The notes under the pieces are model-generated. The model searched no databases. It was given only the letters and a program-made list of their open reading frames with translations, and was not told where the DNA came from. A DNA stretch of 63,729 nucleotides, the filler included, from Rhabdomonas costata (Eukaryota): the NCBI GenBank assembly GCA_019059605.1. It is 26 parts of 26 records of this genome, joined end to end, with 100 filler letters (N's around TTAATTAATTAA, not from the genome) between each part and the next. Parts side by side here need not be neighbours in the genome. Positions count along the whole stretch, not along the records: positions 46,651 to 49,005 come from JAHMHO010003856.1; 25 more parts are not named here. One strand, given 5' to 3'. The position numbers and the translations under genes were made by a program. Below are positions 7,179 through 61,276 of the stretch, piece by piece (the stretch's first letter is position 1; every line of letters starts with the position of its first letter).

Positions 7179-9814
7179 CTGCGAATACCATCCAAAAAAA
7201 CGTCAGCATACACGTGCCTCAGCACACACAGATGCACAGAGGTCAAAAAAACAACCNNNNNNNNNNNNNNNNNNNNNNNNNNNNNNNNNNNNNNNNNNNN
7301 TTAATTAATTAANNNNNNNNNNNNNNNNNNNNNNNNNNNNNNNNNNNNNNNNNNNNAGTGTTGGGTGTGCTTGGTTTTGGTGTGGGAAGGTTGATGCCCA
7401 GGACCTCCAGCTCGTCGGCTGACCCGCCTCGGACCCGCATCCTGCCTTGCCGTGCCGTGTAAGGTGGTCGCCGTCCTCAGCCACACCGCCGTGGACAGCA
7501 CACCATCCTTGTGATGGTGTGTTTTGACCAAAGGACCCGCCATGCCGCGACCAGACCGTGAAGTCCAAAGCGTGTAGGCCTTTGGGAAGCATGTACGTGA
7601 ACACCAGGTCGGCGAGTACTAGTTCAGGAAGCTGATGGAGGCGCTTTTCCGGCAGTGCCAAGATGTTTCCGTCTCGGCAGATGGCCGGCATTGTCTCTTT
7701 GAGCACACTGTGTCCGCGTGCCGAAGTTCCAGATACCGAGCATTTGGTCAGGTTCTTCCCTTCGGTGTCGCTCTAGACTAGCAGCATGTATCTTCTGCAA
7801 TGGAGGTCAAGCAGCCATGTTAGGGATGCGCTGAACTGACTGGGCGCCATAGATACCCAGGGATTATATCCCGTGAGCCAGTTGGCCGCGTGCGTGGACT
7901 GAACGAGAGCAGGCGTTCTTCCCCCAAGCATGTGAATAGTTGTGCTTTGGTTGCCGCGTGGAGCTCGAGTGTCAAGACGTGCTACACTTTCACTGGACCA
8001 GATTTATGTTAGAAGTTGATGATAACAGCTCCCTGTGATCATTGAGTGTGTGCCGTAGATTTGGAATATGTAAATGGGTCTAAATATATACCTAAAAAAT
8101 AAAAATGCAACAGTATGCTCATAAAAATACATTTATATTCAAGCACATCCAGGTCCTTTTTGTTTGACAATTTTTTAGATTATGCTAACGTCATTGAGCA
8201 AGTGACTGGTCTCAAGAGAACCTCGAAAGTGCATTTATAGCTTGCAAGAAACAATAGATGGATGGTGTGCTGTAAACTCCTCGTCCACAACGGATTATCG
8301 ATGTGGTTGGTATCCCATAGTCTGGTAAGATTTTAAAATCCGAATCCTGTTGTTTATAAATGCAATCCCATAATACCTACCTGTGGTTAATGGATAACTT
8401 GAAGTTTTTGGCTGATACTTGTGTACTTTGAATAATCGAAGTATTTATCAATTGATCTTGTTATCATTGGTGACTCTGAACCGATTTGACCACATGGTAT
8501 TGTTCACAGGTTTCCACTTGTTGTAAACATAGCAATAAATTGACCACAANGTAATTTGAATAATCGAAGTATTTATCAATTGATCTTGTTATCATTGGTG
8601 ACTCTGAACCGATTTGACCACATGGTATTGTTCACAGGTTTCCACTTGTTGTAAACTAGCAATAAATTGACCACAACATCTATCTCTCCACAAAATGTAC
8701 GGAAAGTTGGTAACAGTGTGTTAGCGAGCAATCAGTTAAAAAAAAGGGTATTCAACAACGCTCTATGCAAAAGTTTCAAATCACTAGAAGAATAAGTGGC
8801 CATGATGTTCGCTTACCAGCATTTTTATACTCCTTTGTAATTGATTGCATTAAGTTTGCTTGCAAGCACTCAGTAACAAAACGCACTGAGTGTTGCTGTT
8901 CCTCGCAAGCATATCAATTTGTTCAAAAAAACGGTAATTTTGGGTTTTGTTGAAGTAAACACCCCAGCACGACATATGTGGAAACAATTGCACTGGAATC
9001 ATTCTTTTGCAGGAAGACGTTTCAAGCGGAGACCAGCGCAACACGTAGGCCACAAATGCTCACACTTGTATTTTAAACCACATTGGCTGCTACATATTCA
9101 CAAGTTTTTAACGTTTTTGCAAGTGTCAACACAGTGTGTGCGTGGATACTTTACTGGTGACATGCCTGTTTCAAACAATGGATACACGCAGTAATCTATC
9201 GGTGAATAGAGACATGGTATGCAAATGATATGGCTCAATTAATTATAATCCTGCAGAAAAAATCCGCAGTATTGCTTCCAGTGTTTTCAGAAATGTTTCA
9301 AAAGAATCAAACATAAAAACCACCAATTCCATGAAAACGAGCCCGTGCTTCTGTGTAAGGATGTTTCATGTAATTTCCCGAGTAGTTATAGGAACAAACT
9401 CCGGTTTTAGTGGCGTTTTATGAATCTCCAACAGCATCACACCATTTAATTTAATTACAGTGATGTTTTTCCAATGATTTGCAGCTTTTTGTATCAATTT
9501 GACGTTTACATAACCCAGAAATTATCGTCTTCAGAATTTTGGAAAACAGATTTAGCAAACTTCCGGCAGCAGCCTGGGCATCTTACACCGCTTCTGAATC
9601 AACAGTAGGACCAAGAGTTACAGTGGACGCAGAGAAGGTTGTGTGAGTAATCGCGGTGGAAGTGTTGCAGGGCCAAGTGGTTCTGTGAGATTTTCACCGC
9701 GATTACCCACACAANNNNNNNNNNNNNNNNNNNNNNNNNNNNNNNNNNNNNNNNNNNNTTAATTAATTAANNNNNNNNNNNNNNNNNNNNNNNNNNNNNN
9801 NNNNNNNNNNNNNN

Positions 9815-46321: not shown

Positions 46322-46948
46322 CAAAATGCGCGACGTACCTTTGCTTGGTTTCTCTGCAGAATGCACTGCTTGCTACCATTGTGTTGACATCTCCACGTTC
46401 GAAGAATCACGTTTCGAGCAAACACCACCCCTCTCTGCGTGAGGTGGCAGGCAGCAAGAGCGATAACCGGTCATGAAGGGTTCGCGATGATCGGCGAGAA
46501 CGAACCATGCAGGAACCATGCAACTTCTGGGGTATCCATTCTTTTCTATGNNNNNNNNNNNNNNNNNNNNNNNNNNNNNNNNNNNNNNNNNNNNTTAATT
46601 AATTAANNNNNNNNNNNNNNNNNNNNNNNNNNNNNNNNNNNNNNNNNNNNGTGGGGGTGGGTGTGCATTTAATGTGCACTTAGGCTGGATGTTTCAGGTA
46701 AGGCCCACAAGGGTTCCAGCGGAATGCAAAGCAGTGTGGAAAATCAATGCCCGTATGACGCCAGACGCACCTCTGCGACGCCAGGCGCACCTCTGACCAC
46801 CACCGTATAAAGCAGAAACCAGCAGGGAAGAAGAGCAACCCGAACAGAACAAGCATGACATTTGATAACACCACCATTGTCGTTATACAAGCGATTATAA
46901 AAAACCGCCTTTGCGCGTGCCAGTCAATGACGGATGCCCCCACCACTA

Positions 46949-48987
46949 TTAGGTCATCCCAAAGCCTGCGTCCTCTGCGTGGTGGAGGACGTTGAGCACC
47001 GCCTCCCGCATCTCCGCCAGGCTGGGGTAGGCCGGGAGGTTGATCTGGTTGTTGCATGTCGCTGCCGTGGGCCATATGGAGCGGTGCTCCACAACCTGTG
47101 GTTCAGGGGTGAGTTTACGCCCTACCACTGACGAAATTGCACCACAACAACGGCGACTCAAATAGTTCAACGTCGCAATGGTAGTAGCTGCAGTAGTCGC
47201 AATAGTACCTGCTGTATGCAATGCCCTTGTTTTGGGGATTGAGAAACACCACAGCCACAACAAGTGTTCAATGTCCAATGGTCCACAACAGACAGAGAGG
47301 CAGAAGCAGAGAGGGGGGGTGCGAAGGTGTTGTGTTCAAAAGAAAAAGTGCGGAAAGCTGGTGTGTGTGTGTGTGTGCAGGATGCTGGATGAAAGCTTCT
47401 TCGGGATCCGTGCGATGTATGGCTGGTGTGTCGTCGGTGGTGTGGATGTTGGGGGAAACAAAAACCACGGGGACGGACGGGACCGGCCTGTTGCACAAAA
47501 TCACAGGGTGTAGCGACCAAAAAAAGATAGTTTCAGGCGTGGTCCGCCCCCTGGTTAGATTTGGAAGCCTAGCGCTTGCATTGCATCGAAACGGTGCTCA
47601 GGGCTGGTTTCTCTGCTGTAATCCCGCTGTAATCCCGCTGTAATCCCGCAGCCCAGCAATGCGCACACATCTTGGTTAGTATGCAGCTGGTAAAGGCTAA
47701 CAGCACGCTTATTACACCGCCACTTCATAAAGAAACGTCGCCGCGTAGAAGCGGGCATCCGATGCAATTCACAGTGAGATGACACAAAACAATAGTGGGG
47801 ATGTAGTGGAATGTAGTGGAGTTGGGGTGGGCCTCGTCGACCTGGAGCTGGAACCGGGGCTTCAGGCCTGCGAAGCCCCCCAGGGGCAGCCTTGGGCTGC
47901 CCGTGACGAACTGCAGGAGCTGCCGCCTTTGGGCCTCCGACAGCCCTTCAAGGACCTCCCACCACCACCTCTGCACCGCCTCCGTGGCCACGGCAGCGGA
48001 GAGCGGGATGTACCCCAGGGCCAGCGCCGTGGAGTGGGCCGAGGTGTCCGTGAGAATCCTTCGCGCCGCAGGGAGAGATCGGTGCAACTCGATGGCTTGG
48101 TGTGAAATCGAAAAACTTAGGTGAGCGGCGTTCTGGTGCAAAGGGAAGTTCAGGACCTTTTTCTTTACTGATTTATTCCGAGAAGAATTGAGGAAAGGCA
48201 GCTCTCCATTTCGGGCAGCTCTCTCTCTCCTGGCATCTGCTGAGCTTCTTTTCAATAATTAGCGGAAGAAGATTTCGGACAACCTGACTTCGACTGAGGG
48301 GGATGCCTGCTAAGTGGTACAGTCTGTTAATGGTTGCGGGTACTGGAGTCGCGGGCGTTGCTATGGAGCCACGCCATGCGACGTGTAACGGCGATAAGGA
48401 ATTTTTGTCTGGTGCCTTGCGGTGGTTGGTACCTCGCTGTCGACTTGACCCTCGAGGCAAGTGGTTCCAGGCGGCCATCCTTTTTGAGACTACTCTCTGA
48501 GAACACTCCTGAAAGAAGGGCCTCCTGCCAAGTCGTATAGCCGCCTTGCAGGAGTTCCGCCTTCCTTTCGCACCGCCAGGCGCCAACCGCGCTTCGACTC
48601 CAGCCTGGACTTGGCGGAAAGGAGGATTTGCTGCCTTCTAGACAATGTGGTGGTGGGCGAGAGACTTTAGAGGGACTGGCGTTGCAAGGTAAAACGGCTC
48701 GAACCCGATTTACCTTGCAACGCCACTCCCTCTACAGTGATCCCCCATGCTCCATTTTACTAAACCTGTGCTGATTGATGCAAAATCTGGACGCTGGTTG
48801 AAGAGGAAGAGCTTTCCTGAGCGAAAAGCACTCTTTCGGCGAAAGAGCAGAATAGGTACCACTTCAGGAAGCCCGTGACCGTGGCGGCATTGCTGCAGTT
48901 CAGGGCGAGGCTGCGGTTGTCGATCAGGGCGTAGGCCAGGCCGAGAATGGGGTAAGTGTTCAGCCCCGGAAGCCCAATCACATCGGC
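46949..48987 (-). CDS. Chimeric CDS: PstS/periplasmic-binding-protein-like C-terminus fused to a HECT E3 C-lobe (exons 48987-48860, 48058-47842, 47095-46949)
   Basis: NTYPILGLAYALI...NCSNAATVTGFLKW|ILTDTSAHSTALALGYIPLSAAV (PstS-like) runs into WWWEVLEGLSEAQRRQLLQFVTGSPRLPLGGF...|WPTAATCNNQINLPAYPS...GFGMT* (HECT). Intron phases are consistent. Confidence 0.8.
48668..48734. repeat. Near-perfect inverted repeat (26-bp arms, 1 mismatch, 15-nt loop) inside an intron
   Basis: TAGAGGGACTGGCGTTGCAAGGTAAA ... TTTACCTTGCAACGCCACTCCCTCTA. Confidence 0.9.
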
Positions 48988-49441
48988 CTGCACGAAAAAC
49001 CCCCCNNNNNNNNNNNNNNNNNNNNNNNNNNNNNNNNNNNNNNNNNNNNTTAATTAATTAANNNNNNNNNNNNNNNNNNNNNNNNNNNNNNNNNNNNNNN
49101 NNNNNTGTTTTTCGGGCGTACGAGCACATTCCGTCACTCACCCGACGCCCACAAGGATTGAAAACACACAAACCCCTTTCAGTGACCTCCGCAAAAAGCG
49201 GTTTTGATGAAGATTAAGTTCACACCCCTGTTCCGTGCGCGCTAAAGTGAGTCCACTATAAACTAGTGGCAGTGCCCAAAGTGACATACCCGAGCGGGTG
49301 ATGTGGAGCCCTCTCCTCAATTTTTCAAATTTTTCAGCTGAAAAAAAAAATTGAAAAATGTGCACAAATCACCCAGGCGACGCTGAAACACCTAAATTCA
49401 TCATTGCTGCCCGAAATTGGGACAAATCCAACAAACAGGAC

Positions 49442-56507: not shown

Positions 56508-58822
56508 GGTAAGCTACATGCTGGGCCTCAGCGGGCCCAGTATCTCCGTGCAGTGCAGCTGCGCCACCTCCGCGGCGTGCGTCAATCTGGCCACCGCAGC
56601 GCTGGCGCTGCAGGACTGCTCCATGGCCCTGACCGGGGCCAGCTCCGTCATCAGCCCACAGACCTACGGCTACATCTGGACCGAAGGTGCCGAGGCAGTG
56701 CTTGGTGGGGTACTGCAGTCCCCACTCTGCCTTGTTGTGTGCAGAGAGGAGAATATAATGCAGAAGGCATTTTTACCGGCCACCGTTAGACCCAACCCGT
56801 TCGTGGGGTGGCTGAGGTCGAAAGCAAACAAATGGGATGTTGTCTTCCACTTGGCTCTTTGTGCTTTTGCTTGCAATCTTTGTTCCACGTCCGCCAGGGA
56901 ATGTGCTTTCTCGAGATGGCCACGTGCGCACCTTCGATGCCAACACAACGGGTACGGTGGTCACTGACGGCGTGGGCGTGGTTCTGTTGAAGCGCCTCTC
57001 CGACGCCATTGCGGATCGGTATCCATCCTGACCCTACATTTTCACCACAACTACCACAGCGTTAAAAGCATTCAGCGTTGCTGCGAGAAGGAAGTTGCCA
57101 ACTCACAAAAGAAAGATTATGAAAAGCACATCGTCAACAGGTCGCGATAACCTGTGAGAAAGATTTAGAATGCGTCAAAAGTCACCAGGGCTCACTGCTT
57201 TCACCACAACACACAACACACACACACACACACGCAAATAAACGCGCTCACTCACTCGCTCACTCTCACAAATACACGCACCTCCGCACCCTTTGCGGTA
57301 TTGCCTCATCTCTTGGGGGAGGGAGGTGACGTAGTAGGTTCCCTTTTGTGTTGTTTTCAGGGCATTAGAAGACCTTTGAAGCGCTTGCACTATTGGCCAA
57401 GGGAAGGGTTGATGTTGCCCCATTCTAAAATGGTATGGTAATTGCTTTTGCCATTGCATCTGCCTGGGACCTTGCCAGTTTGGATCCAGTAATAATTCTG
57501 CTACACACTTACTCCCCCCCCCCGTCTCTCTGTTTCTCTCGCATTGCAAGATGCGCACAGGGAGACCGAGGCATAGAGATGCGTCACCTTTTCCTTCTGC
57601 TCCTCGTTCCAGCGACACGGTGTACTCCGTGGTGCAGTACGTTGGGGTCAGTAACGACGGCACGAAGGCCTCCTTCCACTCTCCCTCCGCCGCTGGGCAG
57701 GCCGCCGCGATTGAGGCGGCTTACAGCAGCACCGGAGTCAATCCTGAGAACGTGAGCTACGTCGAGGCTCACGGCTCGGGAACCATCATCGGTGCTGATC
57801 CCTGTTCCGAGCATGATTGCACGTGAGCAAATGTTCTTGTTCGATCGGGCAAAGACCATGTAACATAATTTTTGTGAGGTGGCTTGCTACTACAATTGCT
57901 TGCTACTGTATTTTTTTTAAAACACACCAGCTCCCTTGGGTCGTCGCACCCCCAGCCCTTGAATTAAGGCTTTTATTTTTTTTCGGAAAGACGCGCAGTA
58001 AGAATCGAACTTTTTTTCTCCGGTGACATGGCATTTGACCCTGGGAGAGGGCGGAAGTTAAATCGAAAACAAAAACCATGCATAAAGCAGGTGGGTTTTG
58101 GACAACCCATATCTCCATTGTGGCGTGATGACTGTGCGTTGGGACAAATTTCCCTCAATTCCTTATTTTCCTGGGTTGCTTTTTATTTGGTGCGGGGACG
58201 GGGGGGCGGTGTACAGGGGATCCCGTTGAGCTTCAGTCCCTCACCACGGCCTTCCGAAAGTTCACCCCGCGCTCCCGCTTCTGCGTCGTGGGCAGCCTCA
58301 AGCCCAATGTGGGTCACGCGAACATCGCTTCTGGGATGGCCAGCCTGATCAAGATCACCCTTATGCTCTCCAGAGGGGTCATCCCGCCGCAGGTTTGCTG
58401 CTAAGGCTGGTCAACGTGGGGATTCCAGAAAAAAGATGAGGTTCAAACTCTTAGGATGTGGATGACCTTCCAGTTATGTACATTTGTTCTGCAGTGACTG
58501 GAATTTAGTATCTCAATAGTGTACTGGGGTTTATCTCGTTGTTATATCGGGTCTGAGTCATCCACCAGACACAGCCCTATATGCGTCCTCTGTCCAGTTT
58601 TCCCTGTATTTGTGTCCCTATGCACCTGTGGGCGAGTGCTGCTTTGCCTTTTTGCCCATCTCTACGGTCTCTACTGATCTGTACGCGTTGCTCTGTACGC
58701 CTTGCCCGGAAGTGTATTCGAGGTATAATCTCTTCTTCACAGATCAACCTCACCCGCCCCAGCCCCAGCCTAGCTCTGGCGGACTCCCCCTTCAACCTGG
58801 CCGGCTCCTCCGCCACCCCTAA
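56508..58822 (+). CDS. Type I polyketide synthase ketosynthase (KS) domain, five exons
   Basis: RVSYMLGLSGPSISVQCSCATS (catalytic Cys), SRDGHVRTFDA, VLLKRLSDAIAD, SNDG, YVEAHGSGTIIGDPVE (His), GSLKPNVGH (His), IPPQ|INL...DSPF. Four GT-AG introns in phase. Confidence 0.93.
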
Positions 58823-59269: not shown

Positions 59270-61276
59270 AGCCGAAGAGGATGCTCCTCTGCTGCGCAAG
59301 GCAAGCACTTTCACGTCAGCAGGAGCCGCACCCTCCGCTGAGACTGCAGCCTGCACTACTGGGTCACCTGGATGACCTACACGCAGTGCATTTGTCGAGG
59401 ACATCACCACTGAAGATTTGGCGGAAGAGCTTGGACGGTCCTCGGGGGTGAGTAAAAAAAGGGCAAACGGTCTTTAAGTCTCAAGAGCCTCTCTCCCTCC
59501 TCCCTCTCTTGCCCCCACCTTTTCTGTCGCAGCTCACTGCACCATTGCCGTGCTCTTCACCGTGGCCACCGCGGCGAGCTGAGCCTGTTGAGTCCTAAAG
59601 TGCATCCATTCCAACGTACCAACAAACCAACCCAATCAAAAGCACACTCGCCCACTCCTGCGAAAAGTTCCTTCACAGGTTCACTTTTCCTCCTCTTGGA
59701 GCGTCTTGCTGCTGCGCTATTGCACTGCCATCACGGCTAACTGCCAGTTTCCTCCATGCCCACTAAAAGAAGTCACGCAGGAAGTTCACCAGCGTGGTAA
59801 GCGCAGCAGGCGCTTAAGAGACTGAGTCTTCAGATGTCACATGCCTTGAGATGTGTCACGGAGCGCGACCATTGCCGCGCCGCGGCTTGCCGGAGCTCCT
59901 GGGTGGCCCACAGCCCTCTCTCCCCAACCACGGAGCTCCAGTAGAGAAGCTCAAGCTTTGGCAGCCCGGAGGCCAGAGAGATGGCCGCAAGCCCGCAAAG
60001 AGAGCCTCGTGGCTGACAAATGGAGTATGGGCAACAGGTCGGGTATCCCCACACGCAGAGAGATAAAAATGCGTTAAGGTGCACATCCATTCCGAATCAT
60101 TTGCAAAATCATTAGCAAAATTATAGAAACGTATCACATATATCACATGAAATCCAGAAGTCTTTGAGTGTTGCACAGAAATATCCGCCACAAGGTGCAG
60201 TCCTGTGCTGAGAAAGAACGCGGTCAAAACAGCATTTGGGCAACCGCCCCCTCAAACTTTGCAAATACCACATCCCAACAAAAACTCGCTGACCGCCCAC
60301 ACCAAAGAGCTTAATAGCACACCACAACCCCACCTATTCCCCCACCGACAAACATGCAACACGTCCGACACTGAGGCCGCAAAGCCCGCCCCGCCCTCAC
60401 CAATCGCTCAGCGTCCCACTGCGATCTCCAGCTGAGGCCGACTCGCCACCGCTGCGGTCCTCAGCGGCCACAAAGTCTCTGGATTGCTGGACGTCATCTC
60501 CTCCGGTCCCACCCCGCCCTCCCGAGGAGACCCCGGGGGGCACTACCGTGAGTCATCCCTCCACAGGTCAGGTGAATGGGGTCCACACCACAGCGGTGAC
60601 CCCATTCACAGACCCACAACGCGGCGAGGCTCGCACACCACCACGACCCCACAGCGTCCATAGCGCCAGCCACGGCAGCACAGAAGGAGCTGCAGGACTC
60701 CCTTTGGTGATTCCCGTGGGGCTCTTCCTCCGTGGGGCACCAGAAGCCCAAACTGTTGCCACGCATGTCAAGCTCAGCCAGAGAGGATGCCGTGGCAATG
60801 GAGGGCCGGCGATGGAAGCTGCGCAGGGCGCAGTAGCTGAGATCAAGGACTCGCAGCGTGGGTGGCAGGTGGCTCAGGAATCCCAAATCGGACAGGGGGT
60901 TGAAAGCTAGCACAAGCCTCTGTAGCTATTCCAGCAGAAAGAAGCCCATCTCCACAATTCGTTCCCACCCAAAATGCTACTAAGGTTCCCTGGGATTTCA
61001 GTCAGGTTGCCCGCCTGTTGAGCTTATTTCTCCAGTTACACCACTCAAAGCGCTGGACCACATCTCCCCTCCGGTTGGTCTCTCTTCAGACTTTGGCTCT
61101 CTAAAGTGCTTCGCCTTCAAATCGGAAACCTCTCCCCCTTCATCACTTGGGCAGACCTGCAGCAGGCAGCACTCCCCCAATGAATCAGGCAGGCCCCGCA
61201 GCCCACGGCGCGCCAAGAGGGCCTCTGAGCCCTGCAGTGCCGCTGCGACATCCCCAGAGCCGCCGGACCCCAACAA
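59270..61276 (-). CDS. Leucine-rich-repeat protein, multi-exon, partial
   Basis: LARRGLRGLPDSLGECCLLQ|RLVLAFNPLSDL...TLRVLDLSYCAL...LAELDMRGNSL (LxxLxLxxN repeats). Downstream exon limits are uncertain. Confidence 0.7.

Follow-up and report, generated by a model that had tools for sequence, protein, structure and literature searches.

A PstS-like C-terminal end and a HECT catalytic C-lobe in one spliced reading frame on a short contig of Rhabdomonas costata

Can the C-terminal end of a phosphate-binding protein of the PstS type and the catalytic lobe of a HECT ubiquitin ligase be encoded by one and the same eukaryotic gene? This question is raised by a contig of Rhabdomonas costata on whose minus strand three exons, read in one frame, pass from a PstS-like sequence into a HECT C-lobe. 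The contig occupies positions 46651-49005 of the stretch of 63,729 nucleotides that was analysed (referred to here as the window), and the fusion gene lies wholly within it, with exon 1 truncated by the contig edge. In HECT ligases the ubiquitin-conjugating enzyme (E2) binds the N-lobe, and the Cys of the C-lobe receives the ubiquitin.

That a PstS-family C-terminal end stands in one spliced frame with a HECT C-lobe is confirmed as an observation at the level of the sequence. As to what this observation represents, we give about an even chance to the contig carrying the 3' end of a single spliced gene, eukaryotic and present in the genome of the organism, in which a PstS-type domain runs into a HECT C-lobe.

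Gene model and the PstS-like half

The contig and the parts of the gene, given 5' to 3', are as follows.

46651-49005, contig with the fusion gene, 2355 bases, bordered by 100-base linkers at 46551-46650 and 49006-49105
48860-49005, minus strand, exon 1, running off the contig edge, 48 complete codons and 2 bases, PstS-like (..YPILGLAYALI..GFLKW)
48059-48859, minus strand, intron 1, 801 nt, GT..AG, splitting a TGG (Trp) codon
47842-48058, minus strand, exon 2, PstS-like at its start and HECT in the remainder
47986-48058, minus strand, PstS-like start of exon 2, one base belonging to the split Trp codon and 24 full codons, ILTD..ALALGYIPLSAAVA
47842-47985, minus strand, HECT part of exon 2, its last 48 codons, first helix of the C-lobe and the next strand, ..QRWWWEVLEGL..LLQFVTGSPRLPLGGF..
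47096-47841, minus strand, intron 2, 746 nt, GT..AG, phase 0
46949-47095, minus strand, exon 3, rest of the HECT C-lobe ending in ..GFGMT, coding at 46952-47095, stop codon TAA at 46949-46951
47054-47056, minus strand, catalytic Cys codon TGC, in exon 3

As the first-pass annotation had read them, the three exons join in phase across two GT-AG introns. The joined coding sequence of 510 nt stays open and encodes 169 amino acids (aa) plus a stop, which amounts to a C-terminal fragment. The G+C content at third codon positions (GC3) is 0.85 in exon 1, 0.92 in the PstS-like part of exon 2, 0.90 in the HECT part of exon 2 and 0.85 in exon 3, and the equivalent value is 0.51 in both introns and 0.49 in the 3' flank. 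As GC3 drops on passing from the exons to the introns, the exon borders are marked by composition in addition to the splice signals. By the same measure one codon bias is common to the PstS-like and the HECT half, and because of the GT-AG introns and this shared contrast in GC3 both halves resemble nuclear genes of one genome, not those of a bacterial contaminant.

Each intron also contains a repeat. A hairpin in intron 1 (48664-48738), possibly a small foldback element, has a loop of 7 nt between 34-nt arms of 91% complementarity, and intron 2 contains, at 47615-47649, three head-to-tail copies of the 13-nt GCTGTAATCCCGC at a spacing of 11 nt.

The PstS assignment was made with our own splice model and our own hidden Markov model (HMM), which has 334 positions and was built from 19 PstS sequences, that of E. 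coli K-12 and 18 from plasmid records picked from a tblastn listing; the exon-joined protein was scored against it by script. Joined residues 13-80 aligned to positions 267-330 of this profile with 22.4-22.6 bits (P about 3e-9 for one comparison), and the alignment passes without a gap across the intron 1 splice. Alone, exon 1 scored 4.8 bits and exon 2 scored 3.7 bits. When the 80 residues were shuffled, none of 5000 replicates scored as high as the real sequence (best shuffle 6.9 bits), and the real score was not reached either when exon 1 was shuffled (0 of 3000, best 11.0) and when exon 1 was kept fixed and residues 50-80 were shuffled (0 of 3000, best 21.8). The score climbed with the length of sequence admitted, from 6.2 bits for residues 1-49 to 11.1 for residues 1-66, 17.5 for residues 1-73 and 22.6 for residues 1-80, and therefore the PstS-like reading extends well into exon 2 and ends 4 positions before the end of the profile. 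The score across the splice and the failure of every shuffle to reach it bear out the earlier identification of exon 1 and early exon 2 as the C-terminal end of a PstS protein.

Jackknifed and subset PstS profiles, including those without the two closest sequences, gave 20.3-24.6 bits, and a profile made from the 7 actinobacterial sequences alone gave 8.1 bits. Among 2511 natural open reading frames (ORFs) of at least 60 aa, taken from the window and from 48 metagenome loci, the top scorers on the PstS HMM were the exon-1 ORF (6.0 bits) and the exon-2 ORF (3.5 bits) of this very gene, followed by one at 3.3 bits. The nearest single match is the PstS of a Mycobacterium lentiflavum plasmid. Only the C-terminal fifth of the PstS domain is covered by the contig, and on its sequence this part may derive from another branch of the same binding-protein superfamily.

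Recognition of the N-terminal part by a binding-protein profile, which the first-pass annotation had led one to expect, was obtained in one form and not in the other: single exons gave no PstS or PBP_like_2 (PF12849) match in Pfam or NCBIfam at E values up to 10, whereas the joined residues reach the 22.6 bits given above on our own PstS HMM. Single exons gave no PstS match in PDB (phmmer), a BLASTP comparison of E. coli PstS with the single exons returned nothing, and the four matches of exon 1 to plasmids by tblastn were chance matches, none of them to PstS. These negative results are attributed to the shortness of the exons, as reflected in their low scores when taken alone. A phmmer search with exon 1 against 1.84 billion representative proteins found no credible relative; the sole match (P0002), a repeat protein of 2630 aa matched in 12 stretches, was set aside as chance. 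A weak lead was found for exon 1 in the Atlas, where PBP_like_2 occurs in 10% of the members of the rank-22 cluster (score 0.85).

The HECT half and the seam in exon 2

Exon-2 residues 25-71 match positions 212-257 of the Pfam HECT profile (PF00632, 306 positions, curated cut-off 23.9 bits) with 51.1 bits, and exon-3 residues 9-47 match positions 269-305 with 26.8 bits, coverage of the profile being limited to positions 212-305. When PDB was searched with exon 2, 78 distinct chains were matched; all 60 of the chains listed are HECT ligases, the closest among the matches listed is AREL1 (E 8.5e-10, residues 26-71), and in none of these 60 does the alignment begin before exon-2 residue 21. The 30 Atlas matches for the HECT part of exon 2 were also HECT without exception. 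Our own HECT HMM, with 439 positions from 13 metagenome HECT loci that have long full-length ORFs, aligns to the joined protein from residue 78 only, with 75 bits, and remains collinear over intron 2. In this profile the catalytic Cys column is occupied by the Cys of PTAATC, and the Phe at -4 is kept, as can be seen when the protein end ..GFGMT is set against the consensus ..AFHLS.

The isolated C-lobe constructs of SMURF2, HUWE1, HECW2 and E6AP in PDB have 21-28 residues ahead of the aligned start, from which it follows that about 20 C-lobe residues have no HECT-like counterpart in the fusion. The earlier description of this part as a HECT C-lobe therefore stands as far as the catalytic Cys, the GFG ending and the HECT match are concerned, but the C-lobe is not whole, the 20 or so residues before its first helix being PstS-like. 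No HECT N-lobe was detectable with the HECT HMM in the 77 upstream joined residues (residues 1-73 scored -0.2 bits), in agreement with the earlier view that the tail of a binding domain, directly upstream of the C-lobe, takes the place of the N-lobe. Of 1421 other ORFs of at least 30 aa examined in the window, none was HECT- or PstS-like.

Two features mark the point at which the one half gives way to the other.

47965-47997, minus strand, zone of change-over, AAVATEAVQRW (exon-2 residues 21-31), where the matches to the PstS and the HECT profiles overlap
47976-47999, either strand, 24-nt near-palindrome with 10 of 12 pairs and a perfect 12-mer core CCGTGGCCACGG at 47982-47993

W80 of the joined protein is the last residue in the PstS alignment, and HECT starts at exon-2 residues 21-26 by PDB and Pfam and at joined residue 78 by the HECT HMM. 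These overlapping profile ends place the change-over inside exon 2 and in frame, where it had been put on first inspection (near 47970-48000). The two halves are joined in frame and on the same strand. As the PstS match reaches position 330 of 334 and HECT starts at the first helix of the C-lobe, the seam lies at the natural end of the PstS domain and at a secondary-structure boundary of the C-lobe.

Near-palindromes of the strength of that at 47976-47999 occur twice in the window, within 61.5 kb of sequence, and one of the two is on the seam. Perfect 12-nt palindromes number 39 in the window, of which 25 belong to the linkers and 14 are natural. The position of so rare a near-palindrome suggests that the seam is a template-switch breakpoint; such a sequence would be expected whether repair or replication went wrong in the cell or a polymerase switched in vitro, and does not separate the two. 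The first-pass annotation had cautioned against two features of the junction, and these fared differently. The G/T run at 47958-47970 is not suspicious, as it is made up of the codons for R-W-W-W-E, and a repeat artefact was ruled out here by the three Trp codons; the palindrome does merit weight, as the core of the 24-nt near-palindrome. A repeat scan of the contig found no long inverted or direct duplication flanking the seam, which argues against a snap-back product of amplification.

The window as a whole consists of unplaced contigs, each about 2.35 kb long and arranged by size, with artificial linkers between them. A six-frame stop linker, TTAATTAATTAA, lies within runs of N in 25 copies at a spacing of about 2455 bases, and the pieces measure 2353-2363 bases, with the exception of the cut first piece and of one piece that is split by a single N. 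This N, at position 8550, divides one contig into a first piece of 1193 bases and a second of 1164 bases, in which the G+C content is low (0.39). As the linkers join separate, unplaced contigs, a reading of gene neighbourhood across them is meaningless, and genes across the linkers are unrelated to the fusion gene. This applies to an AAA-type ATPase on the next contig (49334-49933, minus strand), which has two exons, Pfam AAA scores of 56.2 and 29.7 bits and a Walker A motif in the upstream exon. Elsewhere in the window, the C-terminal domain of a beta-ketoacyl synthase (Pfam Ketoacyl-synt_C, 60.8 bits) is encoded at 58132-58401 on the plus strand, as a fragment of a polyketide or fatty-acid synthase, and an ORF with leucine-rich repeats is present at 60497-60925 on the minus strand (LRR_1 23.2 bits, cut-off 20.6; LRR_4 25.7 bits, below its cut-off of 27).

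Relatives of the locus and alternative origins of the join

A metagenome scan with exon 2 gave 48 related HECT loci, the nearest of which we take to be TRIP12/UFD4-like on the basis of their LPSVMTC motif. The corresponding scan with exon 1 gave 595 pattern matches, none of which was confirmed. Among the matches listed in a search of the full-text literature there was no relevant paper for HECT with PstS or for a HECT domain with a periplasmic binding protein. Between joined residues 37-77, the two metagenome loci L056 and L058 and the HECT consensus there is a loose common pattern (C.., LK, ST, GY, S.AV). This likeness between the PstS-like tail and the HECT stretch that it replaces may be chance or may be an aid to the fold of the hybrid, and it could mislead the eye either way.

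Several points weigh against a gene of this architecture being present in the genome. A PstS-like ORF of at least 60 aa is absent from the fetched flanks of all 48 related HECT loci, and all 8 of the long-ORF relatives that were scanned carry the full Pfam HECT domain, from position 1-6 to position 301-306. The protein-relative search was negative for exon 1 in longer proteins (0 of 78 candidates), for exon 2 in longer proteins (0 of 1750 at E of 1e-3 or less) and for exon 2 in near-relatives (0 of 6). All the evidence comes from one unplaced contig of 2355 bases in a very fragmented assembly, on which the gene is cut at the edge, and the PstS assignment depends on the 19-sequence HMM and the splice model made for this work. 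The seam lies in the middle of an exon and on one of the two 24-nt near-palindromes in 61.5 kb, which suggests a recent template switch that is equally possible in vitro. Furthermore, PstS proteins are normally found outside the cytoplasm and HECT ligases inside it, and we know of no route by which a HECT C-lobe could be charged in the absence of an N-lobe.

The alternative that these points favour, and one that we take very seriously without preferring it, is a chimera, of which the first-pass annotation had already warned and whose standing is unchanged: a template switch at the near-palindrome would have artificially joined a PstS-like gene and an ordinary HECT gene of the same organism while the DNA was amplified, made into a library or assembled. 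The location of this near-palindrome exactly at the seam, the mid-exon position of the seam, the break with the known rule for HECT domains together with the lack of a relative, and the tiny size of the unplaced contig all speak for such a chimera, and the equal codon bias is to be expected of two genes from one genome no less than of a single gene. The join is, however, in frame and on the same strand, and it falls 4-12 residues from the natural end of the PstS profile, where a helix of the C-lobe begins; so neat a position would seldom result from a random chimera, and we put the share of random joins that would look like this at well under 1 in 1000. The sequence common to the two sides at the seam would also be far below the word sizes used by assemblers, the snap-back inverted duplication that is the usual trace of multiple displacement amplification is absent, and the window gives no sign of whole-genome amplified DNA.

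A join made in the living genome need not produce a working gene, and two gene fragments could have been captured by a mobile element of the Pack-MULE or Helitron type, or brought together by repair, the result being a chimeric pseudogene that has an open frame only by accident. Introns are kept in both halves, which points to copying as genomic DNA, only the 3' parts of genes are present, the mid-exon join lies at a near-palindrome of the kind used in template switching, and the introns contain the hairpin with 34-nt arms and the short tandem repeat. Such an origin is nevertheless distinctly unlikely, since the 2355 bases show no terminal repeats or other hallmarks of an element, the frame is intact along with both splice sites, the catalytic Cys and a strong codon bias, and the neat position of the seam is as improbable here as it is for an artefact. 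Most improbable of all is that the gene is an ordinary HECT gene, in which the last part of the N-lobe and the first part of the C-lobe have diverged and were misread by eye as PstS-like. If two gaps are allowed, the tblastn alignments to L056 and L058 extend back as far as joined residue 37, and the letters named above are shared with the HECT consensus. Against this, the HECT HMM aligns only from residue 78, Pfam HECT and the 60 listed PDB chains begin at exon-2 residue 21 or later, and the residues in question have their 22.6 bits on the PstS HMM; a divergent canonical HECT domain was accordingly rejected, as the HECT HMM gives joined residues 1-80 a score of -0.4 bits and aligns them, like residues 1-73, out of register. 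If the contig is indeed the 3' end of one spliced gene, that gene is judged more probably than not to be maintained, a young junction under no selection being the lesser though still considerable share.

A putative mechanism and its implications

If the contig is the 3' end of a real gene, the product would end with a PstS-family (type II periplasmic-binding-protein) domain that runs to about 4 positions short of its usual C-terminus. This tail would pass into the HECT C-lobe inside one exon, probably within one helix, with the catalytic Cys and the Phe four from the end kept, and the tail of the binding domain would stand in place of the HECT N-lobe and about the first 20 residues of the C-lobe. 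Such a gene may have arisen when a deletion or a template switch, with one breakpoint within an exon, fused a PstS-like gene with the 3' portion of a HECT gene, an origin with which the near-palindrome at the seam is consistent.

The function can be proposed with low confidence. The binding domain may serve as a sensor or targeting part and the C-lobe as the output. A C-lobe that lacks the N-lobe would be unable, alone, to take ubiquitin from an E2, so that it would either depend on a complete HECT ligase for charging in trans or be a ubiquitin-binding or competing module only. A bolder alternative would have two breakpoints, with the binding domain inserted between the N-lobe and the C-lobe, where its closure on a ligand could set the reach of the Cys. 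The first-pass interpretation is borne out in part, at the level of architecture; the idea of a ligand-gated or trans-complemented ligase, which it had raised, would be a conjecture on function. The gene could be a maintained one for a phosphate-sensing HECT enzyme, with a PstS-type clamshell placed directly on the C-lobe, whether inserted between it and an N-lobe encoded upstream of the contig edge or replacing the N-lobe. How far the catalytic Cys can reach would then be governed by closure of the clamshell on phosphate or a related anion; we consider this specific reading unlikely. The phosphate-contacting residues of PstS presumably belong to the part of the domain that lies upstream of the contig edge at 49005.

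In comparison with HECT ligases (E3 enzymes), the fusion keeps the whole of the C-lobe from the first helix onward, with the catalytic Cys, the LLQFVTGSPRLP stretch, the GFG-type end and the Phe at -4. It differs in that its 77 upstream residues lack Pfam positions 1-211, that is the N-lobe and the start of the C-lobe, which are present in 8 of 8 relatives. In comparison with PstS and PBP_like_2 proteins, it has the last 64 of 334 profile positions in order across the intron (..YPI..Y.L.. / ..FL.W.L.. / ..LGY.PL..), but it is eukaryotic and carries a spliceosomal intron, and instead of a stop at the usual end of the family it continues into a HECT C-lobe.

Two known systems couple comparable parts. 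Plant SPX-RING ligases of the NLA type are reported to have a domain for phosphate status and a ubiquitin-ligase domain in one protein that controls phosphate transporters (PMC10748377, PMC5745205). NLA is a functional analogue with no sequence relation to the fusion, as its sensor has the SPX fold and its ligase domain is a RING, which works without a thioester. In the engineered FLIPPi sensors, a cyanobacterial phosphate-binding protein is placed between two domains, moves them and thereby reports phosphate (PMC4615621). FLIPPi is man-made and its output is Förster resonance energy transfer (FRET), not catalysis, whereas the fusion shows attachment at the C-terminus of the binding domain only.

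Should the contig prove to be a chimera, it would be a warning that an in-frame join at a domain boundary on a tiny contig can pass every test at the sequence level. If the phosphate-sensing reading were true, the protein would be a natural counterpart of FLIPPi and a HECT analogue of NLA, and the gene would be a clear case of a eukaryotic PstS-type gene with spliceosomal introns. If the gene is real and expressed, a HECT catalytic lobe would be found apart from the lobe that binds the E2 and tied to a domain that binds small molecules, and this would bear on the charging of C-lobes in trans and on the coupling of nutrient sensing to protein turnover in protists.

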